From Gammaproteobacteria bacterium (lineage in GTDB: Bacteria; Pseudomonadota; Gammaproteobacteria; Steroidobacterales; Foliamicaceae): a stretch of DNA of 64,000 bases. The notes beneath the pieces were generated by a model. That model saw only the letters and a program-made list of their open reading frames with translations, was not told the origin of the DNA and searched no databases. The translations under genes were made by a program, and so were the position numbers. This document shows, one piece after another, positions 1-31,865 of the stretch. Position 1 is the first letter of the stretch. Each line of letters opens with the position of its first letter. The stretch lies in contig WTGP01000019.1 in the NCBI GenBank assembly GCA_011523505.1, positions 189,151-253,150 of the forward strand, written 5' to 3'.

Positions 1-1977
1 CCATCGGTTGATTTCGTCGAACCTCTGGTTGGACCCGGTAACCAGATCAAACGTCAGCAGATTGATCAGAATGCTCTGGATGTGTTCTTCCCGGTTCTCC
101 GGATCGATCTCATGAAGGCGGCGCAAGGCCTGGTCGTAGGCCGAATAGTCTTCCAGTTGGCTGTACACCTGGGCAAGCAGCCTCTGGTGGCCGATTTCGT
201 CTTCGCCAAATTCCCGCGCGTATTCCCTGATGATCTCGGTGGCCGACAGCAGGTCTCCCGCTTCGGTGTAAATCCGCACCAGGAGGCTCATGTGGTGACG
301 GTTGGCTGTTCCCTCGCTCAACATGGCTTCCAGCTCAAGCGCCATGTTGCCGAGAGCGCCCAGCTCGACCGCCAGCAGCAACATTTGCTCCTCGACGAAG
401 AACCGGCGCGCGGGACTCTCCACCCCCAGCCAGATTTCCTGCCATTGACGCAACGCGTCCTGCTTCTGGTCCACGGTTCCGTACAGCCACGCCAATCGCA
501 TTTGTTCGTCGTAGCCCAGTCCGCCCCCGCTGTCGCGAACGGCCTCAAAGACGCGCACGGCCTCCAGCGGGCGGCTCAAGCGCTCGTACGCATCGGCGAG
601 GTCGCGGCGTTCGGCGGCATTCGGCGGCAGGAATTCATCCAGGCGCGCAAGCACGTCCAGCGCCTCTTTTTCCTGTCCCATTTCCAGGTGCGCTTCGAAC
701 AGAAACAAGAGTGCGCCATTGTTCGGGCCTTGGGCTTGAATATGCCGCTCGATCATGGCCATGGACTCCGCCGTGAAACCCATCCGCAGCATGAGCCGGG
801 CCGCACCCACCAGGACTTCAGCCCGCTCAGAATTCCTCTCTTCCAGGGTCCGCCAGACTCGCAGGGCCCGGCCGGGATGGGCCCGATGCAGGTAGTGCGC
901 GGCCAGGCCGTCGTACCATCGGACCTGTTCCGGCTCCGATTGCATCATGCGCTCGTACTCACGCACCATTCCGTCCGAATCGCCTGCCGCCTCGTACAAC
1001 GAAACAAGCCGACTGCGCTGGCGAATGTCAGCTTCGCTGCCCTCGAGCTGCCGGTAGAGTTCGATCGCCTGCGCATATTCCTCGGTCTCGATCAGCGTTT
1101 CCACGCGCAGCCGCAGAATTTCCTCGTCGCCGACGCCGCGTATCGCCAGGTCGTCCAGCAGCCGGTCCAGTTCTTCCGTTGTCCGATGGGATTCGCTGAG
1201 CAGCGCCAGGGCATATCGGCGGTCCAGGCGAACCTTCGCCTCGGAGTAGGCCATCCAGGCCTGTTCGCGTGCCAGTCCGTGCTCGCCGGCCTTCAGCGCC
1301 CACTCCGCCAGACGCAGGTGTTGCGGGTAGAGGCTGCCGTCCTCAGCGCGGGGCTCGTACAGTTGAGTCGCCCGCTCGGGCCGGCCGAGAAGCGCAAGAA
1401 CGACGGCGGCCTGGTTGCGGAATTGCTGGTCCCGAAGCAGGGCGAGGTTCTCCAGTGTTTCGATATCGATCCTGCTCGTGTCCATCATTGCCAGGCGCGT
1501 GCGGATCGCCCATCGCTGCCTGCTTTCTTCCATGGCTTCGGCGGCGCGGCGGTACAGGTCCTTTGCCTGTTGCGCGTCTCCCCTTGCATCAAGAAGTCGC
1601 GCCTGTAAAAGCAGCGTGTCTCCGGTCGGCGCCAGTTCCTGAGCCCTGGCCGAGGACGACAGGGCCAGCCCGATTTCACCGTCCCTCCACTGAAGGTGAG
1701 CGATCGCCAGGTAAAGGCAAGCCTGTGCGGAGTTGGTGAGATCCGGCTGCCGGGCGAACGCTTCAAGGCGCGCGACGGCGCGATCGATGCCCTCGCCTTT
1801 CAGCACGGTCTCGCGGTACACGTCCGCGACCATTGCGGTGTCGAACTGTTCCGTTGCCTGCGCCGCCGCGACCAGTTCCGCCATCGCGGAGGCGGCGTGG
1901 GCGGCCGGATTGGCGAACGGCGCGCCGCCGCAGATCAGTGCGAGGCAGAGAGCGGAGCGAAGCATGCCGCTATTCAT
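1..1977 (-). CDS. Giant exported TPR/alpha-solenoid protein, paralog of 3268-9921 (N-terminal part; continues beyond left window edge)
   Basis: Not in the ORF track (no stop inside window). Manual translation from ATG 1977 gives MNSGMLRSALCLALICGGAPFANPAAHAASAMAELV..VYRETVLKGEGIDRAVARL and, at the edge, EIDPENREEHIQSILINLLTFDLVTGSNQRFDEINRW. These match VYRETVLTGAGIDRAVARL and EIDPDNRLDHIQSIILNLLTFDLATGTNERLGEIQRW of the 2242-aa ORF. Both ends were translated; the middle was not checked codon by codon. Confidence 0.9.
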   Translation of the reverse strand, partial: MNSGMLRSALCLALICGGAPFANPAAHAASAMAELVAAAQATEQFDTAMVADVYRETVLKGEGIDRAVARLEAFARQPDLTNSAQACLYLAIAHLQWRDGEIGLALSSSARAQELAPTGDTLLLQARLLDARGDAQQAKDLYRRAAEAMEESRQRWAIRTRLAMMDTSRIDIETLENLALLRDQQFRNQAAVVLALLGRPERATQLYEPRAEDGSLYPQHLRLAEWALKAGEHGLAREQAWMAYSEAKVRLDRRYALALLSESHRTTEELDRLLDDLAIRGVGDEEILRLRVETLIETEEYAQAIELYRQLEGSEADIRQRSRLVSLYEAAGDSDGMVREYERMMQSEPEQVRWYDGLAAHYLHRAHPGRALRVWRTLEERNSERAEVLVGAARLMLRMGFTAESMAMIERHIQAQGPNNGALLFLFEAHLEMGQEKEALDVLARLDEFLPPNAAERRDLADAYERLSRPLEAVRVFEAVRDSGGGLGYDEQMRLAWLYGTVDQKQDALRQWQEIWLGVESPARRFFVEEQMLLLAVELGALGNMALELEAMLSEGTANRHHMSLLVRIYTEAGDLLSATEIIREYAREFGEDEIGHQRLLAQVYSQLEDYSAYDQALRRLHEIDPENREEHIQSILINLLTFDLVTGSNQRFDEINRW

Positions 1978-2087
1978 GCTGCACCCGAGACCTGCCAGCC
2001 CTCGCTTGCTACGTGTAGGACGAGGTCCTCGTTATCCCCCGCGAACCCGGAAGCGCTCGTTTACGGCGCCCGTATCAGGTCTATCCG

Positions 2088-3218
2088 CTATGGCTGATCC
2101 GCCGCATCCATCGGTTGGTCGACGGCTTCCTCGCCGCTCGCTTCGGCGGGCTCTTCCTCGGCTGCGGCCTCTTCCTCGGCGGCGGCCTCAGCCTTGGCGG
2201 CTTCTTCCTTGAACAGTTCCTCCAGCCGCAGTTGCAGACCGTTGCCGCGCAGGTTCCGGCCGACCGTGACACCGTCGGTGCTGACCAGGAAGCTGGCCGG
2301 GATGGCGTTTACGCGATACATTTTGGCCACGGGGCTCTCGAATGCGAGTTCGTCCGACACGTTGAGCCACTCGATGTTGTAGTTGTCCTCGGAGGCCTGG
2401 CGCCAGGCCTCGCGTTCATCGTCCAGGTTGAAGGCGAGAATCTCGAAGCCCTGTTCGCGGAATCGCTCGTAGGCCGCCTTGAGGTGCGGAATCTCGGCAA
2501 TGCACGGCCCGCACCAGGAAGCCCAGAACTCCACCAGCGTGAACTTGTTCCTGGCCACGACGTCGAAGAGGCGGATTTCCTCGCCGGCCAGGCTGTTGGC
2601 CGTGAAGTCGCGTATCGCCTCGGCCAGTTCCTCGACCCGTTTGGCCGTGAACACCTTGAGCAACTGCACCGTCAGGTTTTCGCCCAGCAGGGACTCCAGT
2701 TCTTCCATGACCTTCACCTGCTCCTCATCCTCGCCGTCCTGCCAGGCGGCCCTCAGGGCAAGCAGCCGGGCAATCGGATCCTCATACTCAAGATAGATGA
2801 CGCGCAGGGACTCGGTAGCCGCTTCGCCGGGTTCGTCCAGCGCGGCGCGGATCATCTCGTTGTAGTCCCCGCCGCTGAAGGTGAGCGCGTCCGTGGCGGA
2901 ATCCCACAGGACCTCATGCTCGGCGCCGGGTTCCGCAATCCCGCTTACCCGGAACTCGTCGGCCTTCGCGCCCGCAAGCAGGTTCAGTTCGATCAGCAGG
3001 GGCTCGGACAACGGAATCCTCATCGTGGCTTCGCCGTCCTGGATGATCGCGATGCCCAGCACCTCGAAGCCCGCGTCGGTGCGTGGGTCGGTGTAACCGA
3101 TTTCGATCAGCTCGCCTTCGAACTTGTCCAGACCGCTGGCCGTCACCGTGATGTCGCTTTCCGCCGCCAGCGCCGCGCTTGCGGCCAGGCACAAACCGAA
3201 TAACAGGTGTTTATTCAT
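2088..3218 (-). CDS. Exported TlpA/ResA-family thiol-disulfide oxidoreductase with N-terminal accessory domain and acidic tail
   Basis: Signal peptide MNKHLLFGLCLAASAALAAE; thioredoxin motif VEFWASWCGPCIAEIP; YRVNAIP cis-Pro loop; RNLRG; AGGAG upstream. Confidence 0.9.
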   Translation of the reverse strand: MNKHLLFGLCLAASAALAAESDITVTASGLDKFEGELIEIGYTDPRTDAGFEVLGIAIIQDGEATMRIPLSEPLLIELNLLAGAKADEFRVSGIAEPGAEHEVLWDSATDALTFSGGDYNEMIRAALDEPGEAATESLRVIYLEYEDPIARLLALRAAWQDGEDEEQVKVMEELESLLGENLTVQLLKVFTAKRVEELAEAIRDFTANSLAGEEIRLFDVVARNKFTLVEFWASWCGPCIAEIPHLKAAYERFREQGFEILAFNLDDEREAWRQASEDNYNIEWLNVSDELAFESPVAKMYRVNAIPASFLVSTDGVTVGRNLRGNGLQLRLEELFKEEAAKAEAAAEEEAAAEEEPAEASGEEAVDQPMDAADQP

Positions 3219-3267: not shown

Positions 3268-6200
3268 TCAGGGAATGGCCATAGCGACGGCCTGGGTCTC
3301 TTCCTCTTCGTCCGGCGTCAGGTCCTTCTCGGCCGCCTCTTCCCGCTCGATGCGTTCCTGCAACTCGCCGACGTAGGCACTGTCCTCAATCCGCTCGGCG
3401 ATCGTTTGCAGCACGCGCAACACGCCCAGGCCGCTGTCGAGGCCGTTGGCGCGCACGAGCTCCAGCAGTTGCGCCCCCTCGTCGGAGTCCTGATACAGGC
3501 CCAGCAGCGTCAACCGCTCCTTCCATGGGAGCCGCCCTTCCTCCAGTATTCCGGCCACCAGGTCGAACTGCAGAGATCCTCCGCCCGCTTCCGCAAGGGA
3601 AGCAAGCAGCACGAGTCCTTCGGCGCTCAAGGGGCGGCCACCGGCTTCGATGCTCTGCAGGATGCGGGCCATCAGGCCGGCGTCCTGACCGGTTTCTTCC
3701 GCACGCAATTGCCGCAGCCCGAGCGGAACGAGCAACCGGAGTGCGTCGTACTGTTCCACCTGTCGGCTCGCAACCAGGTCCAGCAGCATGTCGGTGGCTG
3801 CCGCGACCCAGTCCGGCATGCCCGGCCATTCGTCCTCACCCATAGGGAAAAGCCGCATTTGCCTTCTGAGAACCTCCTGCGCGGCGGTATAGCCCTGATC
3901 TTGGTATTGGTACCGCTGGGTCACTGCCGGAAGACCGTAGAGCAGGCTGAGGGCGCTCGCGGCCTGGGCACTGAACCTTAGCCGCATATCCATCTGTTCC
4001 TCCGGCGTAAGTGCAGGTGGACCCGCTTCCGTCAGCATGGCGCCGAGAATCTCCGTTGCGCGCGCCAGGTCGCCCGCGCGTGCAAAAGCGCGCGCCAGCT
4101 CGGCCGCCTTTAACGCACCCGATTCGTACAGGCGTTCCGGCAAGTCCAGAGCAGCCGGGGACCGGCGCCGCGCCTGCACGAACACTTCCTCCGGCGAGTA
4201 CACCTTTTCCAGGGAGGCAATCAGAAAGGCGTCGAACAGCATGTCGTAGGCCGGCATCTCCTTCGCAGGCCGGGCGAGAAGCAGGACCGCATCCAGAACT
4301 TCACGCGCCGCCCCCGAGGGCAGTCTTTGCGCAACTTCACCGATCAGTTCCAGGAGGTTGGCGGGGCTCGGTTGTCCCCCGTAAAAGCCGTAAAAGAAGC
4401 GCTCCTGGTCGCCATACTCGTTGTGCTCGATTCTGCGGGCCGCCACCAGCTTGTAGTAGTCCACCGACCGGTCCACCACGCCGGCCGTGGCAAGAACTCG
4501 GGCGGCAAGAAGCAGTTGGTACGGCGAGGGATCGGAAACGGCCGCCAAGCGTGCTTCGAATGCCTCAAGACCCCCAGGCCCGAACTCAACTCTCTGCTCG
4601 TCGCGCAGCATCATCCACAAGGTGAATTCGTGATCGTTGATTTCCTGGAGGTTGAGGCGATTCCACAGGTCCTCCAGCCGCCGGCCGTCAGCGGAGGCCT
4701 TGGCCAGGTATTCGTAAAGCCGGCGGAATCCCGTCCGGGTCCCGTCCGGGATCGCGCGCAGGAAGGCATCCAGTTCGCCAGCTCCGTAGGGCGCCTCCGC
4801 AACGGCGTCAAACAACATGCGTGGCTCGGGAGCCTTTTCGCCCATGGCGCCGGCGGTTGAACCCCCCGACATTGCCGCAGGCGCCATGATGTAGGCCACG
4901 CCACTGAAGTATCCGCCGCGGTTTGCAGGCGCCTTCTTCCCGGGCTCCGGCATCGCAGTATTCAACAGACCGCTGGCGAGGAACGTCAGCGGCATGGTTC
5001 CCGGAGGAGGCCCGTACGGAGAATTGCGGGGCGCCAGCAGACTGCGCCACGCCTCCCGAAGGGCCCGCTGTCCTTCCTCGTGATCGCCGGCGTTCAGCGC
5101 CTCGCCCAGACGCTCGACAGGTCCCTTCCGTCGGCTCTGCTGTTGCGGCGCGCCAAGTACGATCAGCGCGGAACCTGCCGACGCGGATCCCGAATCCTCC
5201 TCGACAGGCTGCATGGTCTGCAACTGGCGGATAATCGCGCCCACCGCGCCGGGCGCCCGCATCTGCCGGGCCATTACCTGCTGCATGACCGCGGGATCGC
5301 TCAGATCCGCGCCGCCGTCCGAAACAATTCCGAGCGCTTCCCCGAAGCGCTGCTGCGAACGGAAAAACAGGAAATGCGCCAGCCGCCAGGCGGCATCGTC
5401 CGGCGCCGCCCGGTACTCTTCGGCGATCGCTTCTCCGGCGCGGTCCGCATATCCCAGGTTCAGCCAGACGCTGATCCGGTCGGCCCGGTACCGGGAAGGA
5501 TCGGGATCCAGCGCGGCAAGCTGGTCCAGCACGAGGTCCTGGCGTTCCAGCCGGTCCATGGTTGGCGGTCGATAATAGAACCGCGACGAGTATTCGCGTT
5601 CATAGGCCGCGCGGGCCAGATCAAGCGGCACCTCCTCGCCGGCGGCAACCCGGTCGAGCAATTCCGAACCCGCAGCCTCCAGAGCGTCATTCAGCCCGGG
5701 TGCGTAAAAGCGCTGGGGGAAGCCTTGCGGCGACGGCAGGTTCTCCTCCATCTCGACGATCAACCGGAACGCTTCGTCGTTTTGGCCGGCATATATGGCC
5801 TCGAGGAACGGTCTCACGTCGGGCATGTTCGGCCAGCGATTGCGGACGTAATCGGCAACGCGGTACAGCACTTCGGCATTTTCCCTGCGGCCGTCCACGA
5901 TCATCATTGCCTGTGCGACCGTGTAGAACACGCGGTCGTCATTGGTCTCGAGGCCGGACAGGAATTCGATGACCGTGTCCGCCACCTCGCTGCGCTGCGC
6001 GGCGGTCAGTTCTTTCCTGAGCAACGGGCGAACGCGGCTCAGGGCATCGCTGCCCGGGAAAAAGATGCCGGCATTGCCATCAGACCCGGCGCCCTCCACC
6101 TCGGCCTGAAGAAAGCGGATCCGGTCCTGCGTGCTTCCCCGCTCCTCGAGGTATTTCCAGTAGCCGCTGTTGTCGTTGAAACCGAAGGGGCTGGCCGGCT

Positions 6201-9200
6201 CGGCGCCGGCACCAGGATCCAGCAGCAGCGCAATGACTTCCTCCGGCGGCGCCAGGGGCTGCCCGGCCACTTCCTCCGCCTCCAGAAGCATGTCCACGTT
6301 CGAACCCACCAGCGCCTTGAAAGCGTCGCGTTCCTCCAGGAGCTTCGACGACGTGGCGAGAGCCAGGCGCCGGAACTCGGATTCGCCGAGCAGACCCAGC
6401 GCATAGCCCAGCCCTTCCGTGAATTCTCCGTCCAGGATCCGCTCGCCCAGCAGCGTCTCCATTTCGTCGAAGGCGCCGTCCAGCCGCAGCAACTGCAACT
6501 GCGTCTCGAAGTCTTCGCGTTGCGCGGCCAGGGCCAACTGTCTTCGCAGCGGCGACTGCGCGGCCAGCGCGCTGTCGTCTTCGACGGTCACGCCGTCGGG
6601 GAGCGGCCGGCCGGCAGCTCCGTACGCCGCGGTCAGGTGCTCGGCAAAGTCGGCGTCGTCGCCGAAGTGCCCCAGCAGCTTATCGTCGGCATACTGCGCG
6701 AGGTCCCCGTCATCAAGGAAGAAACCGACCGTTCGGACCAGCCGGGCTGTGCGGTCCAACCGCGCATAGCGTGCGAGCGGCAACAACTCTTCTTCGGTGC
6801 GGTCGAGCACATTGCGCAACTCGGTGTCGAACAGGGCCTTCAGTTCCGCGGCCGCCGCCTCGGACTCTTCCGCGCCCTCAGGCCAACTCAGCAACAATCC
6901 CTGCTCCAGCGAAGCATAGTGCTCGCGATACTCGCGCGACACCGTGGTGTCGGTGCGCTGGTTCATGATCGCCTGCCAGGAGTTGGGGTCCACCGGACGG
7001 GCGCCGGCGGCCAGCACGGTGGACTGGCGGCGGAGTACGTCGCCGATGGCCTGCATGTAGCGCTGGAACGCCACGTCCTCGCGCCCGATCACCTCGTACA
7101 GGAACCCGGTCTTGTGCAACAGCTCCAGGCTGTCCCGGTTGACGTTGAGGGCGCGGTTGTAGAACACCCGCGACTGCTCGTCGTAGCCGGCCTCCTCGAA
7201 CATCTCGGCCTTGGTCCGATCGATGTCGATCATCCCGGTGATGTCGTCGATCATCTCAAAGGCCCGCTCGGCGCCCGAGACGTCTTCCCGCGCCAGCAGC
7301 GACTTGCCGACGTCGATATACACCTCCGGCGGCAGCTGCTGGCGCAGACCGACCAGGCGGCGGCCATACTTGAGCTGCCGGTCGATGTCGCCGCCGCCGG
7401 TGTTGAATCCGCCGAATCCGGTGTTGGGCGTGGCCATGGTAAGCAGTTCGCGTAACACCGCGGGACGCCGCAATCCCGCTTCGGCCAGCGAGTTCTCCAG
7501 CGCCAGGAACGAGGCCTCGGTATCGCCCTGCTCGTGGGCGATGTCCGCCAGGAGTTCGTAGAGGTAGAACCGGTTCGCGCGGGAAGCAATGCGCTCCAGG
7601 ATCACCCGCCGGGTCCAGGCCAGGGTATCCAGCGTTTCGGGATCCGGTTGCTGGAAGAAAGTCGTGGTGCCGATCAGGTTCAGTACGCCGTCCACCGCCA
7701 CAACGAAGTCGTTGTCCTCGACGGCGTTCTCGGCGAAGAACTGCAGGATCGCCACCGCCTCGTCGGTCTGTCCGTTGTTGTCCATGACGTCGGCCAGAAG
7801 CAGCAGGTTGTCGCTGTTCTCCGGCTGCTCCACCAGCGCCCGGCGGTAGGCCTCGACCGCCTGGTCGACAAAACCCGCCGTGGAGAAAATACTCGCCTCG
7901 AACTCGCCGGTTACGGCTTCTTCGTCATACGTGCGCAACTCCTCGATCCAGCGCTGTATCTCGCCAAGCCGCTCGTTCGTCCCGGTGGCGAGATCGAACG
8001 TCAACAGATTCAGGATGATGCTCTGGATGTGATCGAGCCGGTTGTCGGGGTCGATCTCGTACAGGCGGCGCAAGGCCCCGTCGTGCGCCGGATAGTCCTC
8101 CAGCAGCATGTAAACGTGCGCGAGCAGTTGCTGATGGCCGATCGCGTCCTCGCCCATCGACTCGGCATACTCGTCGATGATCTCGGTCGCCGACAGCTTG
8201 TCGCCGGACTCCACGTAGATGCGCACCAGCAGGTTCATGTGGTTGCGGTTGCCGGTGCCCAGCATCAGCATCCCTTCGAGCTCCACCGCCATGTCGCCCA
8301 AAGCGCCCAGCTCGGCCGCCAACAGCAGCAACTGGCTTTCGGCAAAACTGCGCCGCGCCGGGCTCTCCACGCCCACCCAGATGTCGCGCCACAGGTCCAG
8401 CGCCTCGCGCTTGCGGTCCACCAGGGTGTACAGCCAGGCCAGGCGCATCTGATCGTCGTAGCCCAGCTCGCCGCGAACGTCCCGAATGGCCTCGAACACC
8501 CGCAGCGCTTCCTGCGGCCGGCTCAGGCGCTCATAGGCATCGGCCAGTTCCACCAGTTCGGCGGCGTCGGGAGGCAGAAACGCCTCCAGGCGCTCGAGCG
8601 CGTCCAGGGCCGGTTCGTCATCGCCACGGTCCAGCCAGGTCTCGAACAGGAACAACAGCGCGTCCACGTCCGGACCGTGCGTCTGAAGGTGGCGCTCGAT
8701 CATCGCCACGCTCTCATCGACAAAGCCCATGGCCAGCATCAGGCGCCCGCCCTCGACCAATACGCCCGCGCGTTCGCCGTTGCGCGTCTGGAACGTCTCC
8801 CACACGGACAGCGCCGCGTCGTTGTCGGCGACGTTGAGATAGTGCGCCGCCAGGCCGTCGTACCACTGCGGCTGGGCCGGCTCGGCATCCATCATCCGGC
8901 GATACTCGCTGATCATCGCATCGGTATCGCCGGCCGCCTCATAAAGAGAAACCAGACGGCGGCGCTCGGCAATGTCGGCTTCCGATCCTTCCAGCCGGCC
9001 ATACAGATCGAGCGCCTGCGGGTAATCCTCGGTCTCGATCAGGGTCTCCACGCGCAGGCGCAGCAGGTCCTGGTCCTCGGGATCGCGCGTGGCCAGGTCG
9101 GCCAGCAGGAGCGCCAGTTCATCGGCTGAGCGGTACGACTCGGCCAGCAGGCTCAATGCGTAGAGGCGATCGACGCGGACCGGCGCGTCCGCATAGGCCA

Positions 9201-9921
9201 GCCAGGCCTGCTCGCGGGCCAGTTCATGCGACCCGGCGCTCAGCGCCCATTCCGACAGGCGCAAATGCTGCCGGTAGAGCCGGTCCGCCCCGGGCAGGGG
9301 CCGGTATAGCTCAATCGCACGGTCCGGCCGGCCCAGCAGCGACAGCACCACGGCCGCCTGGTTGCGGAAGGACTGGTCGCGCTGCCACGCCAGTTCCTCC
9401 AACGCCTCGACGTTGCGCGAACTCACATCCATCATCGCCAGGCGCACGCGGATCAGCCACTGCTCGTCGCCCTCGTCGAAGGCCTCGGCCGCCCGCTGAT
9501 ACCACTCGCGCGCCGCGTCCTCATCGCCGCCGGCATCCAGCAGGCGCGCCTTCAACAGCAGCGTCTCGGGCGTGGGCGAACTCTCCAGCGCCAGGTCCGA
9601 GGACACCACCGCATCCTCAATCGCCCCGTCGCGCCATTGCAGGTGCGCGATCGCCAGGTGGGACGCGGCCTGGCCTTCGGGGCTGAGCGTGGCGGCGCGC
9701 GAATAGGCGCGCAAGCGCGCGACGGCGCGGTCGATGCCGGCGCCGGTCAGGACCGTCTCGCGATAGACCGCGGCGACTCTCTCGGGCTCGAAGCGCTCGG
9801 AAGCCTCAAGAGAGGCGATCAGCTCGGCCAGTGCGGACTGGGCGTGGACCGGTGGCGGGAGACACAGGACTGCGAGCAACAGTGCCAGGGCAAGAAGTGA
9901 CCTGTTCGTCATCGTCGCCAT
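3268..9921 (-). CDS. Giant (~2,200 aa) exported TPR-like alpha-solenoid protein
   Basis: ORF track 3268-9996; likely start ATG 9921 or 9912, just after the upstream stop (TGAGGATGGCGACGATG). Signal peptide MTNRSLLALALLLAVLCLPPPVHA. Many TPR-like helix pairs (LADAYERLSRPQEALRVF, AGFVDQAVEAYRRAL..P). Confidence 0.85.
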   Translation of the reverse strand: MATMTNRSLLALALLLAVLCLPPPVHAQSALAELIASLEASERFEPERVAAVYRETVLTGAGIDRAVARLRAYSRAATLSPEGQAASHLAIAHLQWRDGAIEDAVVSSDLALESSPTPETLLLKARLLDAGGDEDAAREWYQRAAEAFDEGDEQWLIRVRLAMMDVSSRNVEALEELAWQRDQSFRNQAAVVLSLLGRPDRAIELYRPLPGADRLYRQHLRLSEWALSAGSHELAREQAWLAYADAPVRVDRLYALSLLAESYRSADELALLLADLATRDPEDQDLLRLRVETLIETEDYPQALDLYGRLEGSEADIAERRRLVSLYEAAGDTDAMISEYRRMMDAEPAQPQWYDGLAAHYLNVADNDAALSVWETFQTRNGERAGVLVEGGRLMLAMGFVDESVAMIERHLQTHGPDVDALLFLFETWLDRGDDEPALDALERLEAFLPPDAAELVELADAYERLSRPQEALRVFEAIRDVRGELGYDDQMRLAWLYTLVDRKREALDLWRDIWVGVESPARRSFAESQLLLLAAELGALGDMAVELEGMLMLGTGNRNHMNLLVRIYVESGDKLSATEIIDEYAESMGEDAIGHQQLLAHVYMLLEDYPAHDGALRRLYEIDPDNRLDHIQSIILNLLTFDLATGTNERLGEIQRWIEELRTYDEEAVTGEFEASIFSTAGFVDQAVEAYRRALVEQPENSDNLLLLADVMDNNGQTDEAVAILQFFAENAVEDNDFVVAVDGVLNLIGTTTFFQQPDPETLDTLAWTRRVILERIASRANRFYLYELLADIAHEQGDTEASFLALENSLAEAGLRRPAVLRELLTMATPNTGFGGFNTGGGDIDRQLKYGRRLVGLRQQLPPEVYIDVGKSLLAREDVSGAERAFEMIDDITGMIDIDRTKAEMFEEAGYDEQSRVFYNRALNVNRDSLELLHKTGFLYEVIGREDVAFQRYMQAIGDVLRRQSTVLAAGARPVDPNSWQAIMNQRTDTTVSREYREHYASLEQGLLLSWPEGAEESEAAAAELKALFDTELRNVLDRTEEELLPLARYARLDRTARLVRTVGFFLDDGDLAQYADDKLLGHFGDDADFAEHLTAAYGAAGRPLPDGVTVEDDSALAAQSPLRRQLALAAQREDFETQLQLLRLDGAFDEMETLLGERILDGEFTEGLGYALGLLGESEFRRLALATSSKLLEERDAFKALVGSNVDMLLEAEEVAGQPLAPPEEVIALLLDPGAGAEPASPFGFNDNSGYWKYLEERGSTQDRIRFLQAEVEGAGSDGNAGIFFPGSDALSRVRPLLRKELTAAQRSEVADTVIEFLSGLETNDDRVFYTVAQAMMIVDGRRENAEVLYRVADYVRNRWPNMPDVRPFLEAIYAGQNDEAFRLIVEMEENLPSPQGFPQRFYAPGLNDALEAAGSELLDRVAAGEEVPLDLARAAYEREYSSRFYYRPPTMDRLERQDLVLDQLAALDPDPSRYRADRISVWLNLGYADRAGEAIAEEYRAAPDDAAWRLAHFLFFRSQQRFGEALGIVSDGGADLSDPAVMQQVMARQMRAPGAVGAIIRQLQTMQPVEEDSGSASAGSALIVLGAPQQQSRRKGPVERLGEALNAGDHEEGQRALREAWRSLLAPRNSPYGPPPGTMPLTFLASGLLNTAMPEPGKKAPANRGGYFSGVAYIMAPAAMSGGSTAGAMGEKAPEPRMLFDAVAEAPYGAGELDAFLRAIPDGTRTGFRRLYEYLAKASADGRRLEDLWNRLNLQEINDHEFTLWMMLRDEQRVEFGPGGLEAFEARLAAVSDPSPYQLLLAARVLATAGVVDRSVDYYKLVAARRIEHNEYGDQERFFYGFYGGQPSPANLLELIGEVAQRLPSGAAREVLDAVLLLARPAKEMPAYDMLFDAFLIASLEKVYSPEEVFVQARRRSPAALDLPERLYESGALKAAELARAFARAGDLARATEILGAMLTEAGPPALTPEEQMDMRLRFSAQAASALSLLYGLPAVTQRYQYQDQGYTAAQEVLRRQMRLFPMGEDEWPGMPDWVAAATDMLLDLVASRQVEQYDALRLLVPLGLRQLRAEETGQDAGLMARILQSIEAGGRPLSAEGLVLLASLAEAGGGSLQFDLVAGILEEGRLPWKERLTLLGLYQDSDEGAQLLELVRANGLDSGLGVLRVLQTIAERIEDSAYVGELQERIEREEAAEKDLTPDEEEETQAVAMAIP

Positions 9922-9923
9922 CC

Positions 9924-15098: not shown

Positions 15099-16120
<1,022 letters not shown>

Positions 16121-16124
<4 letters not shown>

Positions 16125-19206: not shown

Positions 19207-19365
19207 TTTCTCTCCCGGCTGAAGATTGTATTTGCCGACGCCCCCGTGGGATGGATGCGCCGAACAGCTGTTTCGTTGCGTTTCCCGGTCAGGGGATTGC
19301 AGGCTATTACATCACGTCCAGCTTACCGGAACCTTGCCTGCAGTGCGGACTGCTCTCAAAGCCGT

Positions 19366-19393
19366 GCCGGCCGCCCTTCCCTGAGCGGCCGGC
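19366..19393 (-). terminator. GC-rich hairpin just downstream of the TBDR stop (terminator or mRNA stabiliser)
   Basis: GCCGGCCGC-N10-GCGGCCGGC perfect 9-bp stem; no strong U-tract. Confidence 0.45.
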
Positions 19394-19403
19394 GCCGAGG
19401 GGA

Positions 19404-22400: not shown

Positions 22401-22538
22401 CAGCGCCGAATCGGCGTTCTGCGGCTTGATGTCGAGCGTCAGAACCTCGTCGGACTGTGCGGAGGCCGCCGTCGCCAAAAATGCCAGCACGGCCACCGAC
22501 AGAACCGCCGGCTTATGTATGCGCAATGAAATGTTCAT
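19404..22538 (-). CDS. TonB-dependent receptor with N-terminal signalling (STN) domain (copy A)
   Basis: Signal peptide; STN (ALVTLAKSSGVQI..GLQGEY..ALAAL); VTGSRL; plug NLRALGSANTLVLLNGRR, IERVDIQLDGSSAVYGADAIGGVVNFITK; C-terminal beta strand FVEFNWEL. Confidence 0.95.
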   Translation of the reverse strand: MNISLRIHKPAVLSVAVLAFLATAASAQSDEVLTLDIKPQNADSALVTLAKSSGVQIILADGAGADVEVEGLQGEYRFDEALAALTTEAGLTHEYTAENLVVVQEAEQVRQPEPEAAGEAPAEEEEAPIELGEQRVTGSRLTMGDPTVRVFTLTAEDIRARGVTTVEELFRTLPFAYAGTTTQNNDANVGASDTEEFRTGGINVGISTVNLRALGSANTLVLLNGRRTAGVAGVEDNYANLVNVPLSAIERVDIQLDGSSAVYGADAIGGVVNFITKKNYTGATFQVRDEYSSTDADASKVSFQGGYGWGSGQITAVLSRDSSQPITNEKTGWTSYDYRDRYGVEFDSRDDRVGQPGVVCPTTVTYPTGTFCGFPWVTYQLPQGHSGVGATVDDFTTNIVPADIVAPQNGEHTRNESGTLYLEQYVTEDLRLYADFLYSNNVSSRNQNTQMFQWPVPASNAFNPYGKTVLVTYYPIKEIESGLPEEFSASGNRKRSLSAGLIWDIGDTTTFELNATRSRSTRYQHQYKLNGPGLINPANPIHARMVELLASSDPSVAINLFGDGSVQSPELASLYNTDAWPLPSDSVTKTRSVEPLLRGQFLQLWGGPISYALGAQFNEDTIYREVTLIAGDGVRREGRFERIGVARPTREATAYFAEFALPIVGERNARPGIASLVLSLQARRDIYKTEGAAGGVDPVYDRVNRRWTYPGEPNIIDVEHSATSPRIGIQYGPTEDFSLRASWSESFRPPVWGDLFSLTNPTFYTFWTYVDPYEPSGNTAPISIRSTLARNSVNTNPEYSENVSFSFDWTPAALPGFRWTLDWSKIDFADKIESVGTLWRDYPEIIFALPDVVERDANGNATVFHRSRPINIANKISEIITTEFAYNFETAWGDFTPRLTYTRVLEEVFQITAESEPIRREGTVLGSDEYRLSGQLDWYRERWAGHLFVYYTPSYLNNNTGSCLEIVGRCEYWGQDKPHLTVDSYISVDLTLSYTFDNGIQLRAGGRNILDAEPPETLYWGMPYDPSRWDARGQVMFVEFNWEL

Positions 22539-23617
22539 GGTCCCACCTCTTGGGATTTGTCTCTGCTCCGGTCCCCCATCGAAGCGCCAATTTCGATCCG
22601 GTCGTAGCGCCTGTCGACTTCGATCGGAAGCACCCGCTCCAGGCCCTTGAGCGCGGATTCGATCTCCTGAATGCTCACCACCATGGAAACACTCAATTCC
22701 ATGACGGATGCATCCTCGATCAGGATTTTCTTCCGCGAGTAGCGGTTCAGCTCCTGCACCACGTCGTTCAGCGGTTCCCGGTAAAAGCCGAGCATGCCGC
22801 CACGCCAGCCCTCGTAACGTTCCATGGATTCGGGCCGAAACGCCCTCAGCTCATCGAGGCTTATGTCGAACTCGGCTACCCAGCCTTCTTCCAGAAGGTG
22901 CTCCGAAGGCGCCGCAATGACTACCGCCTGTCCGCCCGTCGGGAGCGGTGCGGGCGATGCGGGTATTTCTTCAGCAAGTTCGTGCAGCGCAACCGTGCCT
23001 TCAATCACCGCCACCTGGTAACGTTCACGGTGCTTGCGGACACTGAATGCCGTCCCCAGCGCGGTGACGGACCCGAAGCCCAGATCCACCGTAAACGGCC
23101 GTTCGTTGTCCCTCACTACCTCAAAATAGGCCTCGCCGCGCTCCAACAGGATTCTGCGTGACCGGTTGCCGTAGTCCACGACCAACTGGGCGTTGGTGTT
23201 CAGCGTGACAACGCTGCCGTCATCGAGTTCGATGGTCTTCTGTTCGCCGATGCGGGTGACGTACTTTTGCAGCAGGCGTTCGTCCGGCCCGCCCAGGGGC
23301 GAGAAATAAAGCAGGGCCGCGCCGCATGCCACCAGAACGCCGGCGGCAAGGCCGGCCGCCAGCCTCAGATTCGATTTGCGCTCCAGAAGCACCTGGCGGC
23401 AGTCCGAGGCGATTGCCTGAATATCGCCGTCGTCCGCCAGGTCCTCAACGCGCGCGAGGAACTCCAGCGAGCCGTCCAGTTCTTCCCGGTACCTTGCATC
23501 TTTCCGCGCCCGGCTGTCGATCGCCGCCGCTTCGGCTTCCGACAGCTGGTCCGACCAGAGCCGGTGCAAGGCATGCTCCGCGCGGCCATTCAAAATCTCC
23601 TGAAGATTCTTCAGCAC
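22535..23617 (-). CDS. fecR: FecR-family anti-sigma / transmembrane sensor (copy A)
   Basis: Single TM; TRIGEQKTIELDDGSVVTLNT, LERGEAYFEV..RPFTV, ALGTAFSV, GW..F..EPL..V.ELNRYS. Confidence 0.92.
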   Translation of the reverse strand: MLKNLQEILNGRAEHALHRLWSDQLSEAEAAAIDSRARKDARYREELDGSLEFLARVEDLADDGDIQAIASDCRQVLLERKSNLRLAAGLAAGVLVACGAALLYFSPLGGPDERLLQKYVTRIGEQKTIELDDGSVVTLNTNAQLVVDYGNRSRRILLERGEAYFEVVRDNERPFTVDLGFGSVTALGTAFSVRKHRERYQVAVIEGTVALHELAEEIPASPAPLPTGGQAVVIAAPSEHLLEEGWVAEFDISLDELRAFRPESMERYEGWRGGMLGFYREPLNDVVQELNRYSRKKILIEDASVMELSVSMVVSIQEIESALKGLERVLPIEVDRRYDRIEIGASMGDRSRDKSQEVGP

Positions 23618-23619
23618 GA

Positions 23620-24213
23620 TCAGTCTCCTTCGCCCTTCATCTTCCGCTGCGTCTTGCGGATCCTGCGCATCGCCCGCACGATGTAGTTATCGACCTGCTT
23701 CGCCCGCACGCCCATATGCAAGGCGATCTCCTCGTAACTCATGTTGCGGAAGCGTTGCAGAATGAAGGCCACCCGCCAGTTCAGCGGCATGTCCATGATG
23801 GCGGCCTTCATGGCCTCCAGCTCCAGTTGCGCCGCGACGATCCGCTCGGGTGTGCGTTCGTCCACCCGCTCCTGTTCGTTTCCCCGCTGCGCCGCGGCGT
23901 ACTCGCTGCGCAGCTTCCGCTTGCGGTGACGGTTGACAAGGTGGTTGTTGGCCATGGTCAGCAGATAGGACCGATTGCTACCGGTCGTATCGGACATCTT
24001 CTCTTCCAGCCGGGCGACATCCATCAGCCGCGTGAAGAGTTCCTGCACCACGTCTTCGACCTGGTCCGGCGGAACCGAGCGCCCGCGCAGGAACAACCGC
24101 AAGGCCTGGGCATGCTGATCGAACAATTGCTCCACCAGCCGCCTGCGCCCCGGCCTCGGCTGCGAGGCCAGGTCGATGATGCCGTCATTCCGCGGATTGA
24201 ACGAACGGTTCAA
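23620..24213 (-). CDS. ECF sigma-70 factor, FecI-like (copy A)
   Basis: EDVVQELF, SYLLTMANN, TPE, region 4 MPLNWRVAFILQRFRNMSYEEIALHMGV..V.NYIVRA; TTG start after GGAGG. Confidence 0.92.
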   Translation of the reverse strand: MNRSFNPRNDGIIDLASQPRPGRRRLVEQLFDQHAQALRLFLRGRSVPPDQVEDVVQELFTRLMDVARLEEKMSDTTGSNRSYLLTMANNHLVNRHRKRKLRSEYAAAQRGNEQERVDERTPERIVAAQLELEAMKAAIMDMPLNWRVAFILQRFRNMSYEEIALHMGVRAKQVDNYIVRAMRRIRKTQRKMKGEGD

Positions 24214-24326: not shown

Positions 24327-25868
24327 TTAGCTCTCTTCTTCCGCGAGCAGGGGGTCGTCGGGGTCGAGTAGCGGGCGGATTCGATCCATGCCGGCGCGGG
24401 CGCTCTCCTGCATGTCCGGCGGGGTCTGGACCAGCGGCGAGAGAGCGCGCTGGTAGCTGGAGTACGCGCGCCGGTGCCGTCCCATCGCCTCGTAGGCGCG
24501 GCCCAGTTCGTGGCGGACCACGCCATCCAGCTGCGGGTCGCCGTTGAAGCCGGCTGCGAGAAGAACCTTCCACGCCTCCTCGGCTTCGCCGGCGTGCAGA
24601 TACCGGTCGCCCAGCATCAACTGCAACTGCTGTCGCAACCCGGGATTGTCGGAGCGCGCGATGAACTCCAGGGCCTTCTCCGCTAGCGCCACGATCAATG
24701 CCGACCGTGCATCGCGTTCCTCCGAGAAATGAAGGCCCAGCGCGGTCCCGCCCAGCCAGTCCGACTTCATGCGCTCCAGCGTGGCCGACAGGCGGTAATC
24801 CACCGCCTCCATCTGCTCCTCGACCGAAGCGTTCTCCTCCAGCCCCAACCCGAACAGCACCTCGGCCGCCTCGGACACGTTGCGGTCCTCGGGGTTCTCG
24901 CGCAGATAGGCCTGCAGTTTCCCCCGGTCCCCGGCCGCCGCTGCCGAGTAGAACGCAAAATCCGCCTCGGAATAGTTGCTGTCGCGCACCGGCTCCAGCG
25001 CCAGGTAGCCCTGCGCCGGGTTGATCTCAAGACGATAGGCCGTCCACAGGCTCAGCCCCGGAACCACCAGCCAGTCGGGCGAGAACCGCGGATCGTCGTT
25101 GAAGTCCGCGGGAAAAAGCGCCGCCATCCCCGAAAAGGCAACGCGCTGATCGCCCAGGCCGAAGTGAATGTCCGGCAGGTCGCCGGACGGATGGCCCAGC
25201 GCCGTGGCCGTTTCCGCATTGACATAGCTGTGGTAGCCCGCCGTGTTGATCGCCATCAGCGAAGGCCTTCCGTCGCCGTGGCTGACCGGCGCCAGCACCC
25301 GGCCCTCCTCCGTGGTCCGAAGGCCGGTGATGACCGCCTGCGCCCAAGGCCGGGCGTCCATGGCGTTCGCCTCGCCCGCGGGCGTGAAGGACACGCGGCC
25401 CTCGTCCAGGTTCATGCCCAACGCAAAGCGCCGCAGCACCGGACCGCCCAGGATCGCCGCCACGTCGATCTCCTTGAGCTCACTGGAGTAGCGGTTGCCC
25501 AGGTACAACAGCAGATTCGATTCGGGCGACCCCCGCGCGGTCGGCCGCACACCCTCCCTGGGCACCTCCAGCCGCAGTCCCTCCGCCCCCAGTATCTTCA
25601 GCGTCTGCTCGTTTTCGCCGAATCGCACCGCCCCGAATATCTGACCGTAGATGTGCAGCGGCGTAGCTGCGGCGTAATCCAGCACCAGGTGCGTTTCCTT
25701 GCGAAACGCCTCGGTGCTCAGGGTTACGGGCACCAACACGTGATCGCCGATCACCTTGGCTTCGGCGCTGCCGCCCTCCGCCGCCTCCTGTCCCACGGCG
25801 CTCTGCGCAAGCCACGCAAGAGCGCAGGCCGCGATCGCTGGAATCAGCCTTCGATGCTTCATTACCAC
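24327..25868 (-). CDS. Exported protein with two degenerate retropepsin-like domains plus C-terminal TPR (copy B)
   Basis: Signal peptide; GDHVLVPV..LVLDYA, AAILGGPVL; AINTAGYHSY, VVPGLSLW; TPR; paralog of 17671-19206; start may be ATG 25862. Confidence 0.75.
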   Translation of the reverse strand: MVMKHRRLIPAIAACALAWLAQSAVGQEAAEGGSAEAKVIGDHVLVPVTLSTEAFRKETHLVLDYAAATPLHIYGQIFGAVRFGENEQTLKILGAEGLRLEVPREGVRPTARGSPESNLLLYLGNRYSSELKEIDVAAILGGPVLRRFALGMNLDEGRVSFTPAGEANAMDARPWAQAVITGLRTTEEGRVLAPVSHGDGRPSLMAINTAGYHSYVNAETATALGHPSGDLPDIHFGLGDQRVAFSGMAALFPADFNDDPRFSPDWLVVPGLSLWTAYRLEINPAQGYLALEPVRDSNYSEADFAFYSAAAAGDRGKLQAYLRENPEDRNVSEAAEVLFGLGLEENASVEEQMEAVDYRLSATLERMKSDWLGGTALGLHFSEERDARSALIVALAEKALEFIARSDNPGLRQQLQLMLGDRYLHAGEAEEAWKVLLAAGFNGDPQLDGVVRHELGRAYEAMGRHRRAYSSYQRALSPLVQTPPDMQESARAGMDRIRPLLDPDDPLLAEEES

Positions 25869-26717: not shown

Positions 26718-26747
26718 ATACAGGCAAGTCGGAGTTGCGTAAAAGAG

Positions 26748-26860
26748 CCGGGAGCGAGGCGCCAATACTGAGCCCGGGACAATAGGCTCGCCCGCTGCCG
26801 GAGGCCGGCGCACTCGCTCCCGGGATCGCCGGTCCCCCACGCAGGGCCGGGACCGGCGAT
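26748..26860. repeat. Two adjacent palindromic elements between convergent vapC and TBDR (REP-like / bidirectional terminator)
   Basis: CCGGGAGCGAGGCGCC (26748-26763) pairs with GGCGCACTCGCTCCCGG (26807-26823, 1-nt bulge); ATCGCCGGTCCC-N12-GGGACCGGCGAT (26825-26860) is a perfect 12-bp stem. Confidence 0.6.
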
Positions 26861-26869
26861 GAAGGAGGT

Positions 26870-30190: not shown

Positions 30191-30219
30191 TGTCCCCACC
30201 CTTGGATCGTTCTGTTGAT

Positions 30220-31269
30220 TTACCGGCCTTCCGAGCCGGTAATCACGATCCGGTCGTAGTGCCGCCTGACTTCGATCGGCAGCAGCTTCTCCAGGCCGTC
30301 AAGCGCGGAATCGATCTCATACACGCTCAGGGCCGTATAGACGGTCAGGTCCATGACCGCGGAATCTTCAATCAGGATTTTTCTGCGCGAGTAGCGGTTC
30401 AGCTCCTGGACCACCTGGAACAGCGGCTCCCGGTAGAAGCTCAGCATTCCGCTGCGCCAACCCTCGTACCGTTCCATGGTTTCCGGCCGAAACGCCCTGA
30501 TCTCATTCCGGCTTACATCGAACTCCGCCACCCAGCCTTTCTCGAGCAGGTGTTGGGAGCGCGCGGGAATCACCACCGCCTCGCCATCGGCCGAGATGGG
30601 CGGAGGCGAAGCGGGCGCGGTATCCGCCAACTCATGCAAGGCAACCGAGCCCTCGATCACGGCCACCTGGTATTGCTGCGGATGCTTGCGGATATTGAAC
30701 GCCGTTCCGATGGCGGTGACGGAGCGGACTCCGAGCTCCACCGTAAAGGGACGGTCGGGGTCGCGCTCGACTTCGAAATAGGCTTCGCCACGCTCCAGGA
30801 GAATTCTTCGTTCCAGTTCGTTGTAGTCCACCACCAACTGACCGCCGGTATTCAGCGTCACAACGCTGCCGTCGTTCAGTTCTATGGTCTGCTGCTCCCC
30901 CACGCGGGTGAAGTACTTCTCGAGGTGGCTGTCGTCCGGCTCGCTCCAGAGCGTGAAATAAAGCACCGCGGCGCCAATTGCCACGATCACGCCGGCGGCC
31001 ACTCCCAGGGCCGCACTGCGTTTCGCCCGGCGCTCCTGTATCAGGCGCCGGTATTCCAGGACGATCTCCCCGATCTCGTCGTCGTCCGCCAATTCCTCCA
31101 TTGAAGCGAGCACCTCGAGAGAACCGTCAAACGCCTCCCGATACTTCGGATCGTTTCGCACACGGTTGCGGATCGCGGCCGCATTGGCCTCCGACAACCG
31201 TTCGGACCAAAGGTGCAGCAACGCGTGCTCCACGTCGCCGCGCAAAATCTCCTGGAGACTCTTCAGCAC
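30220..31269 (-). CDS. fecR: FecR-family anti-sigma (copy B)
   Basis: Paralog of 22535-23617; GTG start at 31269 (VLKSLQEIL vs MLKNLQEIL) rather than the ORF-track start 31431. Confidence 0.92.
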   Translation of the reverse strand: MLKSLQEILRGDVEHALLHLWSERLSEANAAAIRNRVRNDPKYREAFDGSLEVLASMEELADDDEIGEIVLEYRRLIQERRAKRSAALGVAAGVIVAIGAAVLYFTLWSEPDDSHLEKYFTRVGEQQTIELNDGSVVTLNTGGQLVVDYNELERRILLERGEAYFEVERDPDRPFTVELGVRSVTAIGTAFNIRKHPQQYQVAVIEGSVALHELADTAPASPPPISADGEAVVIPARSQHLLEKGWVAEFDVSRNEIRAFRPETMERYEGWRSGMLSFYREPLFQVVQELNRYSRRKILIEDSAVMDLTVYTALSVYEIDSALDGLEKLLPIEVRRHYDRIVITGSEGR

Positions 31270-31865
31270 GATCTTTCTCCCGCGGCCTTGATCTTCCGCC
31301 TCGCTTTGCGGATCCGCCGCATGGCCCGCACGATGTAGTTTTCGACCTGCTTCTCCGTCACCCCCATGTGCAACGCAATTTCCGCGTAGCTCATGTTGCG
31401 AAAGCGCTGCAGGACAAGCGCCACTCTCCAATTCAGGCGCATGTTCCTGATGACGCCCTTGATGGCTTCCAGTTCCAGTTGCGCCGCGACGATCCTCTCG
31501 GGCGTGTGCTCATCCATTTGTTCGCTTTCGATTGCCCGCTGCGCCGCCGCGTAGCTGGTGCGCACGCGCAACCTGCGCTGCCGGTCCACGATGAGGTTGT
31601 TGGCCATCGTCAGGAGAAAGGAACGATTGCTACCGGTTGCGTCGGACATCTTTTCTTCCAGTTGCTCGACTTCCATCAGCCGCGCGAAGAGTTCCTGCAG
31701 AAGGTCCTCAACCCGGTCATGCGGAACAGCCCGCCCCAGCAGGAACAGGCGCAGGGGCCGGGCATGCCGGTCAAACAATTCCTTGACCAGCCGCCTTCGA
31801 CCCGGCCTGTCGCGCAAAGCCAGGTCGATGATGTTGTCGCTACGACCGCCAGGCAAAGTGCTTAT
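31263..31865 (-). CDS. ECF sigma-70 factor, FecI-like (copy B)
   Basis: Paralog of 23620-24213; start inferred from the AGGGAGG RBS and alignment (ATA 31865 or TTG 31856). Confidence 0.88.
   Translation of the reverse strand: MSTLPGGRSDNIIDLALRDRPGRRRLVKELFDRHARPLRLFLLGRAVPHDRVEDLLQELFARLMEVEQLEEKMSDATGSNRSFLLTMANNLIVDRQRRLRVRTSYAAAQRAIESEQMDEHTPERIVAAQLELEAIKGVIRNMRLNWRVALVLQRFRNMSYAEIALHMGVTEKQVENYIVRAMRRIRKARRKIKAAGERSC

Follow-up and report, generated by a model that had tools for sequence, protein, structure and literature searches.

The 64,000-nt window analyzed here (G000:C19:189151-253150), from a marine gammaproteobacterial genome of 3.1 Mb and 95% completeness, carries an island of minus-strand genes in which a pepsin-fold pseudo-protease fused to tetratricopeptide repeats (TPR), termed protein X, heads a Bat-like MoxR operon with giant periplasmic solenoids. 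That this is a conserved, rare and undescribed module is the firm result of the analysis. Genes were called from a listing of open reading frames (ORFs) combined with Pfam and NCBIfam scans, and these bear out the gene order read from the letters in a first-pass annotation: sigma2-FecR2-TBDR2-(TA)-X2-sigma1-FecR1-TBDR1-X1-Mem505-MoxR-DUF58-BatA_N protein-vWA/GATase1-like-giant TPR-TlpA-giant TPR 2 (TBDR, TonB-dependent receptor; TA, toxin-antitoxin pair; vWA, von Willebrand factor type A domain). Coordinates are given in Table 1.

The island spans ~36.6 kb rather than the ~32 kb first estimated, continues 4650 bases beyond the left window edge, and has argS (31967-33709, plus strand) as its right-hand and a DUF1838 gene as its left-hand neighbor. 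The GC content across the window is ~59-70%, and no Rfam family was found in it. The supposed co-orientation applies to all island genes and fails for the Phd/PIN pair, which is located on the opposite strand in the 1-kb gap between TBDR2 and X2; since positions 25775-26865 are replaced by 271 other letters in a DNA contig of a relative, this pair is a recent, strain-specific insertion. ATGA overlaps are present at 16121-16124, 14150-14153 and 22535-22538, as had been noted, and the remaining junctions are mostly -4 to 49 bp, with longer gaps between TBDR1 and X1 (197 bp), X2 and sigma1 (113 bp), TlpA and giant TPR 2 (110 bp), and TBDR2 and X2 (1001 bp). The duplicated sigma/FecR/TBDR/X modules are true paralogues with 46-71% identity (46% for the receptors, 66% for FecR, remaining values in Table 1). 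For sigma 2 the coordinates are those of the longest ORF, and the true start is probably further in, at ~31870-31842.

Table 1. Coordinates and supporting matches of the island genes and the inserted pair, listed in minus-strand order
Feature	Position	Strand	Description
Extracytoplasmic function (ECF) sigma factor 2	31263..31940	-	Sigma70_r2 and r4_2; 71% identical to sigma 1
FecR-type anti-sigma 2	30220..31431	-	PF04773 2.4e-21, FecR_C; one transmembrane (TM) helix, residues 138-156
TBDR2, 1109 aa	26870..30199	-	Plug, beta-barrel, weak STN; signal peptide; N-terminal signalling extension
PIN/VapC toxin	26337-26717	+	PF01850 at 5.8e-15
Phd-like antitoxin	26083-26337	+	PF02604 at 0.0013
X2	24327..25868	-	Signal peptide, pepsin-like pseudo-protease domain, TPR; 66% identical to X1
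ECF sigma factor 1	23620..24213	-	Sigma70_r2 and r4_2
FecR-type anti-sigma 1	22535..23617	-	PF04773 2.9e-22; ATGA overlap with TBDR1
TBDR1, 1044 aa	19404..22538	-	Plug and barrel
Intergenic TBDR1/X1	19207..19403	-	GC-rich hairpin just after TBDR1, then ~130-nt conserved block (19207-19340)
X1	17671..19206	-	Signal peptide; bilobal pepsin-like domain ~34-291 without catalytic dyad; TPR domain 299-509
Mem505, 505 aa	16121..17638	-	Three hydrophobic segments, long acidic low-complexity stretch, conserved C-terminal part (TM scan, composition)
MoxR-class AAA+ ATPase	15099..16124	-	AAA_3 1.1e-62, AAA_lid_2
DUF58 protein (vWA-like)	14150..15061	-	PF01882 6.9e-36; 37 bp from MoxR
BatA N-terminal-domain membrane protein, 573 aa	12432..14153	-	PF07584 4.4e-8; C-terminal TM helix
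Membrane vWA protein with GATase1-like domain (vWA831), 831 aa	9924..12419	-	VWA_2 2.1e-17, VWA, PF07090 2e-9; N-terminal TM helices
Giant TPR/alpha-solenoid, 2242-aa ORF, predicted periplasmic	3268..9996	-	TPR matches in N-terminal 800 aa; signal peptide
TlpA-like thiol:disulfide oxidoreductase	2088..3218	-	AhpC-TSA 2.9e-17, Thioredoxin_8 3.1e-15, Redoxin; N-terminal signal peptide
Giant TPR 2, N-terminal 659 aa	1..1977	-	Open at window edge; 65% identical to giant TPR 1

Protein X and the Bat-like core

Both X1 and X2 begin with Sec-type signal peptides. The domain scans recognized the C-terminal TPR alone, the protease-like part giving no Pfam or NCBIfam match, and a profile search of X against PDB sequences returned designed or consensus TPRs only. 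In an AlphaFold2 model from a 60-sequence alignment (predicted local distance difference test, pLDDT, 94.6; predicted template modelling score 0.87), X1 consists of a beta-rich domain and a helical repeat domain. The best Foldseek matches in the PDB were pepsin-family proteases (endothiapepsin, plasmepsin X and renin; E ~1e-6, template modelling score to the target 0.4-0.5). A VIA structural search with the N-terminal domain ranked 9iy9_A, a putative endopeptidase of Bacteroides fragilis, at the top (Z 15.7, root mean square deviation 3.2, 214 residues), with further matches to endothiapepsin (Z 13.9), the wheat xylanase inhibitor TAXI-IIA (3hd8_A, Z 13.7) and soybean basic 7S globulin (3aup_A, Z 13.4); the bilobal pepsin-like fold is matched at Z 13.5-15.7 over 214-235 residues.

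An Asp-Thr/Ser-Gly motif in both lobes is the signature of pepsin/retropepsin (clan AA) proteases. In lobe 2 of X1 and X2 the catalytic position is occupied by N (N-T-A-G), and across the 60 homologues it varies (E, G, A, N, S, T and others). The lobe 1 Asp, D66, is kept in a D-Y-T/A context and is invariant in the closer subfamily only. Since a confident pepsin-like fold is found together with the absence of the catalytic dyad, the pseudo-protease call is right, and the earlier description of X as an inactive protease fold joined to TPR agrees with the bilobal model and with the alignment. A SusD-like identity for X was dropped after the pepsin-like fold result.

Relatives of X are few: among 1.84 billion cluster representatives, 155 were retrieved at E<=1e-3 and 23 at E<=1e-30. 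Named database relatives bear just the labels "hypothetical protein" or "tetratricopeptide repeat protein," and nothing on the family was found in the literature. The 155 relatives fall into length classes of ~500-560 aa and ~760-800 aa. The longer class (25 of the 60 homologues examined) has a ~270-aa C-terminal extension, mostly without CxxC, and one of the 60, P0014 (680 aa), has a fused C-terminal thioredoxin domain with CGPC. The nearest neighbors by language model are bacterial Asp_protease_2+TPR proteins, and the family profile also finds genuine ~135-aa Asp_protease_2 (PF13650) ORFs in two other genomes. Mature X2 contains no cysteine, and X1 has no lipoprotein cysteine.

Downstream of X1, Mem505 had no match in Pfam, NCBIfam or PADLOC. 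The 573-aa protein had been annotated as BatA/vWA; Pfam detects the BatA N-terminal domain only and no vWA, so this label is not retained. The probable start of giant TPR 1 is M26 at 9921. Its C-terminal 1149 aa, modeled from a six-row alignment (pLDDT 69.7), consist of all-helical repeats free of beta structure, with ~60 helices and two disordered linkers, and a structure search with this half returned generic eukaryotic solenoids only, at template modelling scores <= 0.21, with no beta-barrel or enzyme domain. Giant TPR 2 is intact at 2208 aa, the remainder being located left of the window (L033 20000-15351). The TlpA-like protein has a ~190-aa N-terminal domain, and its WCGPC is invariant in 5/5 aligned sequences; a predicted complex of X (30-511) with TlpA (20-340) scored 0.00 against a mark of 0.32, which is evidence neither way. 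There is no cysteine in the mature 2,200-aa giant TPR or in the 831-aa vWA protein, which is striking beside a thiol reductase gene. No active protease was found in the island of the window, and no BatD-like domain (e.g., DUF7939) turned up in any island protein in the domain scans.

A second, classical Bat-like operon is present on the same contig (L051, G000:C19:56000-75999) in the order MoxR (46% identical)-DUF58-vWA-vWA-DUF7939. Counterparts (MoxR 41-48% identical) are present across the genus, in the majority of genomes overall and in the majority of those without the island.

Inheritance of the core and the receptor modules

The island was traced in 21 other species of the genus, which together with the window genome give 13 island-bearing genomes out of 22. 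Twelve of the 21 congeners carry all four markers (X, Mem505, the giant TPR and the orthologous MoxR), and the other nine carry none of them. The orthologous MoxR has at least 89% identity and is confined to the island-bearing congeners, compared with 41-48% for paralogous MoxR proteins. X is immediately upstream of Mem505 in 12/13 island-bearing genomes, the exception being G018, which keeps TBDR1-X1 at the argS site and has its MoxR operon on another contig, broken off 161 bp upstream of Mem505. At this G018 site (L014), only TBDR1, without the signalling extension, and X1 are left between argS and DUF1838.

Outside the genus, 20 other families of the order, sampled by 20 genomes, yielded no X, Mem505 or orthologous MoxR, and the giant TPR gave no more than weak repeat-level matches in 5 of these genomes. 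In a wider sample of 300 genomes of the order, three more carriers from two other families were found (G1033, G946 and G929). A first metagenome scan with a 769-aa member of the X family gave no match, and a metagenome scan revealed a carrier lineage with 47% GC (L028/L029). In L028/L029, G1033, G946 and G929, X at 27-42% identity heads (Mem505-)MoxR-DUF58-BatA-vWA-giant TPR, with Mem505 and vWA located after the TPR gene in the G929 variant. Co-occurrence in the congeners and the order kept in four distant lineages thus uphold the view that X and the MoxR/vWA/giant-TPR genes are one conserved unit. Samples of 400 genomes each from the class and the phylum gave no full-length X and just two small true aspartyl-protease ORFs; as only 2-4 first-look candidates per genome were scored, absence from these samples is not established.

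Three island-less congeners, G006, G021 and G014, have DUF1838, a TlpA-like gene (58-61% identical) and argS in succession at this locus, so that the whole ~36.6-kb block, including the sigma/FecR/TBDR trios, behaves as one indel. A maximum-likelihood ArgS tree of 21 genomes requires at least three gains or losses of the island, none of 200 bootstrap trees allows a single change, and the island-bearing G010 is sister to the island-less G016 with support of 98/97. The TBDR1 subfamily (E<=1e-100) is present in 13/13 island-bearing and 0/9 island-less congeners, and 12 of the 13 also have copies at a distance from the island. In 12/13 a co-oriented gene of the subfamily lies <=3 kb upstream of X; in the remaining genome, G009, it is inverted. 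Sigma/FecR/TBDR trios are gained and lost with the core in this genus. At the G009 locus (L106, G009:C1:1461000-1471500), the TBDR body is inverted with an N-terminal fragment left in place, and X2 follows TlpA.

The annotation of the modules as STN-TBDR trios is right for the ECF sigma factor and FecR/FecR_C in both; STN is weak in TBDR2 (24.8 bits, cut-off 28.4) and was undetected in TBDR1. Both receptors align to the FecA model from residue ~13-23, with ~110 aa preceding the plug. They share two cysteine pairs, which are not kept in the homolog from G946, a receptor paired with an M16 peptidase and 35.6% identical to TBDR1 (E 3e-155). A PDB sequence search with TBDR1 gave plug-level matches only (BtuB, CirA and FepA) and no FusA or YddB at E<=1e-5, and TBDR1 is therefore not filed as FusA-like. 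The window genome has 75 Plug domains in 3.1 Mb, ~1 per 42 kb, and is unusually receptor-rich for a small genome. The congeners have 32-76 Plug domains per genome, those without the island likewise 32-76, and the distant carriers 69-100 TBDRs; with 32-100 TBDRs per genome, adjacency of a TBDR alone is weak evidence.

Control regions and neighbors in distant lineages

The ~130-nt block upstream of X1 is kept in 8/8 aligned congener loci, whether a TBDR or X2 precedes it, has no second copy in the genome and matches no Rfam family. It may represent a promoter and leader, or else encode a small regulatory RNA. The hairpin after TBDR1 and this unique conserved block indicate that the X1 operon has its own control region. 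Of two motifs in the X1 upstream region, one occurs once genome-wide and the other gives 6 matches at <=1 mismatch (control 6), with the X1 site alone exact, so no regulon could be defined. Scans for sigma-70 promoters and terminators over 15000-32200 gave nothing above shuffles (0 promoters, 18 terminator-like sites vs 13.4 expected). The regions upstream of the two sigma genes (24214-24326 and 31842-31966) have a common GTTG..ATTCTT..TAGGGAGG stretch, and the 9-mer GGGAAACGC is found upstream of both sigma 1 and X1, as a sequence match and candidate only.

In a sponge-metagenome RNA library, contigs 90-95% alike, from a relative, cover vWA831, DUF58, MoxR, Mem505 and X1, which is a hint that the operon is expressed in the sponge habitat. 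A 720-nt contig of this library runs from the 3' end of an X2-type gene into the 5' part of X1, and tandem X2-X1 genes are also present in G008, G011 and G020. The three runs represent contigs from relatives in which strand, ends and a single transcript are not readable and DNA carry-over is possible, and uncovered TBDR/FecR stretches in the library are not readable as silence.

A ~920-aa two-domain M16 peptidase gene lies within ~10 kb of the core in 4/4 distant lineages. It is divergent and adjacent in L029, directly upstream of X in G929, parted from X by TlpA and DsbD in G1033, and paired with a TBDR in G946. By rough arithmetic (3 to ~10 M16 genes in genomes of 3.8-5.4 Mb), such a gene is expected within a 36-kb span by chance in ~3-7% per genome. 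Three of these peptidases were compared and are 25-33% identical over partial alignments, with ~3-10 M16 genes per genome; at this divergence and copy number, simple inheritance of one neighbor does not account for the recurrence.

The surroundings of the core differ in other respects. G1033 has the order S46 peptidase-M16-TlpA-DsbD-X, with a TlpA 49% identical to that of the window and a full DsbD. G929 carries sigma-FecR-TBDR (STN+CarboxypepD_reg)-M16-X-MoxR on one strand, its TBDR giving no tblastn match to TBDR1 or TBDR2 and belonging to a different subfamily. In G946 a receptor gene of the TBDR1 subfamily overlaps the M16 gene 10 kb downstream of the core on the same strand. An OmpR-type response regulator and a histidine kinase follow the giant TPR directly in G946 and G1033, in place of sigma/FecR, and in G946 the two-component genes are followed by a HlyD-MacB-OEP efflux set and then the TBDR-M16 pair. 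In G001 and G012 a second TlpA-like gene lies between the TBDR and X.

A more distant MoxR operon in G029, a genome of the same taxonomic order (L048, G029:C1:1525000-1544999), has the arrangement TPR+Peptidase_MA_2-MoxR-DUF58-BatA/vWA/ThuA-like-1282-aa DUF4175-like-AhpC/TSA thioredoxin-fold. This analog, built of non-homologous parts, points to a broader class of MoxR operons with protease-like TPR and thioredoxin-fold proteins at their flanks.

Known systems and readings of the island

The combination had been put forward as uncharacterized, and full-text literature searches found no paper describing it; a full-text search for "Foliamicus" likewise found none. The protein family X is new, and the known kinds to which its surroundings belong are Bat-type MoxR operons, cell-surface signalling (CSS) TBDR modules and protease-associated import. 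According to passages of PMC3557215, a periplasmic complex has been proposed for Bat operons, as has a part in the reduction of periplasmic proteins or the export of reducing power, and the function "remains elusive." The island shares with them an AAA_3 MoxR, DUF58, the BatA N-terminal double-TM domain, a membrane vWA protein and TPR in one packed operon. It differs in that the operon opens with X and Mem505, the vWA protein carries a GATase1-like domain, TlpA and CSS-TBDR modules are attached, the TPR proteins are duplicated and 2242 and 2208 aa long compared with small BatC/BatE, and a BatD-type domain was not found. With FecI/FecR/FecA the island shares, twice over, an ECF sigma factor, a one-TM FecR and a TBDR with an N-terminal extension; the receptors, at 1044-1109 aa, belong instead to an uncharacterized subfamily, and the ATGA overlap of FecR and TBDR leaves no room for the usual sigma-dependent promoter before the receptor. 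Both a MoxR and a TonB-dependent receptor appear in the iron-regulon table of PMC3751524.

A TBDR together with a periplasmic M16 peptidase is an established protein-import arrangement, exemplified by the ferredoxin uptake system FusA/FusC and by YddB/PqqL in PMC6793856, the main text of which makes no mention of MoxR, thioredoxin or TPR. The likeness lies in a large TBDR genetically coupled to periplasmic processing proteins, with TBDR-M16 present in G946 and G929. The bilobal aspartic-protease fold without a catalytic dyad is shared with TAXI and soybean basic 7S globulin; unlike inactive pepsin folds and Asp_protease_2+TPR proteins, X is bacterial, periplasmic, TPR-fused, missed by the Pfam protease models and part of a MoxR operon. 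SusC/SusD resembles the island in a gene for a ~500-aa protein with helical repeats right after a large TBDR under sigma/anti-sigma control, whereas TIGR04056 reaches 20.9 and 17.3 bits where the cut-off is 368, and X has no SusD match and a beta-rich protease-like domain.

A Bat-like trans-envelope machine handling imported or periplasmic polypeptides is a plausible, unproven reading of the island, and we hold it tentatively. What the analysis shows directly is which genes are present, how X folds, that the core is conserved and inherited together, and which neighbors recur. Periplasmic handling of imported polypeptides is the best single reading because the link with the TBDR subfamily, with M16 peptidases and with thiol-disulfide reductases recurs from one lineage to another. 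The physical contacts, topology, substrate and regulatory link that we infer would be as follows. A cytoplasmic MoxR AAA+ ring with a DUF58 adaptor would act on the inner-membrane BatA_N protein, vWA831 and Mem505, which would serve as anchors for an assembly in the periplasm, made up of one or two 2,200-residue solenoids, X and TlpA. The dead cleft of X and its TPR would most likely hold an extended polypeptide. The dedicated TBDR subfamily may bring polypeptides into the periplasm, where the assembly would receive them, keep them reduced and unfolded, and hand them to periplasmic peptidases encoded elsewhere. In this genus, the FecR/ECF pairs attached to the receptors would report a surface ligand and probably switch on the X1 operon via the conserved upstream element. 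We regard as unlikely a bolder version, an unrecognized machine through which whole proteins, brought in by a dedicated TBDR subfamily, would be captured, reduced and unfolded in a process coupled to a cytoplasmic AAA+ ATPase.

The import-and-processing platform of the first-pass annotation is supported in part: it fits the TBDR, M16, S46, TlpA and DsbD neighbors of related loci as a theme and is weakened by the two of four distant lineages that lack an adjacent trio. On the related point, whether homologous MoxR operons usually lack the receptor modules, more distant MoxR operons have neither X nor trio, and a trio near the core recurs in G929. Several observations weigh against a machine that handles imported polypeptides. 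The available 10 kb upstream in L029 hold no trio, and peptidases, a glutaredoxin-domain protein and unrelated enzymes are found there instead; G1033 has no adjacent trio, the nearest FecR-TBDR pair being ~15 kb off. Receptors are so dense (75 Plug domains in 3.1 Mb in the window genome, 69-100 TBDRs in the distant carriers) that proximity within <=20 kb is often expected. Differently from Fus/YddB, the island of the window has no M16 and TBDR1 no specific similarity to the solved FusA and YddB, and the single M16 (contig C45) and the DsbD of the window genome are on other contigs. The X1 upstream block is a separate element without a clear match to the regions before the sigma genes. In G018, TBDR1-X1 and the MoxR operon are on separate contigs, TlpA is not island-specific in the genus because it stays in island-less congeners, the ArgS tree is a single-gene tree, and the congeners are not independent.

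Part of this evidence would also fit two independent systems side by side, in which the trios are uptake modules for a small ligand and the genes from X to TPR a Bat-like operon of redox or protein homeostasis, with shared island history only. The X1 element of its own behind a hairpin, the cores without an adjacent trio in L029 and G1033, the two-component system that replaces sigma/FecR downstream of the giant TPR in G946 and G1033, the very high TBDR density, and the elusive function of Bat with periplasmic reduction proposed (in passages of PMC3557215) all point this way. We consider it rather unlikely, as trios and core were lost or gained as one block at least three times, dispersed copies of the TBDR1 subfamily are missing from all 9 island-less congeners, a receptor of the same subfamily (G946) and a full trio (G929) are found near the core in other families, and TBDR1 and X1 remain together in G018. 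The strict co-presence of the TBDR1 subfamily with the island, far copies included, could instead mean that the receptors are the client of a maturation or maintenance machine that folds, reduces or inserts them. Other MoxR-vWA pairs mature specific client complexes, the two shared cysteine pairs of TBDR1 and TBDR2 have a thiol reductase nearby, and X stands beside a receptor gene in 12/13 island-bearing congeners. That account is quite unlikely given the lack of a TBDR in the available 10 kb upstream in L029, the receptor of another subfamily in G929 and the cysteine pairs not conserved in the G946 homolog, and it leaves the M16, S46 and DsbD neighbors unexplained.

An animal host has also to be considered, since record titles and run labels of the relatives point to sponge-associated bacteria, the TPR proteins are very large, and L027 and L029, the two distant metagenome loci, belong to a single record set. 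The giant TPRs and X would then be eukaryote-like repeat proteins exported onto the host with support from the MoxR operon. The ordinary Sec signal peptides, the lack of secretion-system genes in the island, the tight coupling of the operon to inner-membrane proteins, and the presence of the core also in G946, G1033 and G929 make this very improbable. Still less probable is a MoxR-vWA conflict or anti-phage system, for which the secondary match of MoxR to bpMoxR (4.8e-15), the variable presence of the island and its TA pair could be cited. PADLOC was blank for 7/8 proteins, with a weak DolB match of MoxR (6.8e-5), no beta-propeller or effector domain is present, the partners are proteins of the periplasm and membrane, and the TA pair is a strain-specific insertion.

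For Bat-type MoxR/vWA operons, which are widespread and, according to passages of PMC3557215, still elusive in function, the island family is an unusually informative version. Its dead protease cleft, thiol reductase, giant scaffolds and TBDR/M16 neighbors lead to a testable hypothesis of periplasmic polypeptide handling. In the bolder version, protease-associated import would gain an energized periplasmic "unfoldase" platform, and Bat-like operons would get a first defined job. If the link to the receptors is true, it would show processing of TBDR-imported proteins beyond the single M16 of Fus/YddB. It could also bear on the feeding of TBDR-rich, possibly sponge-associated bacteria.

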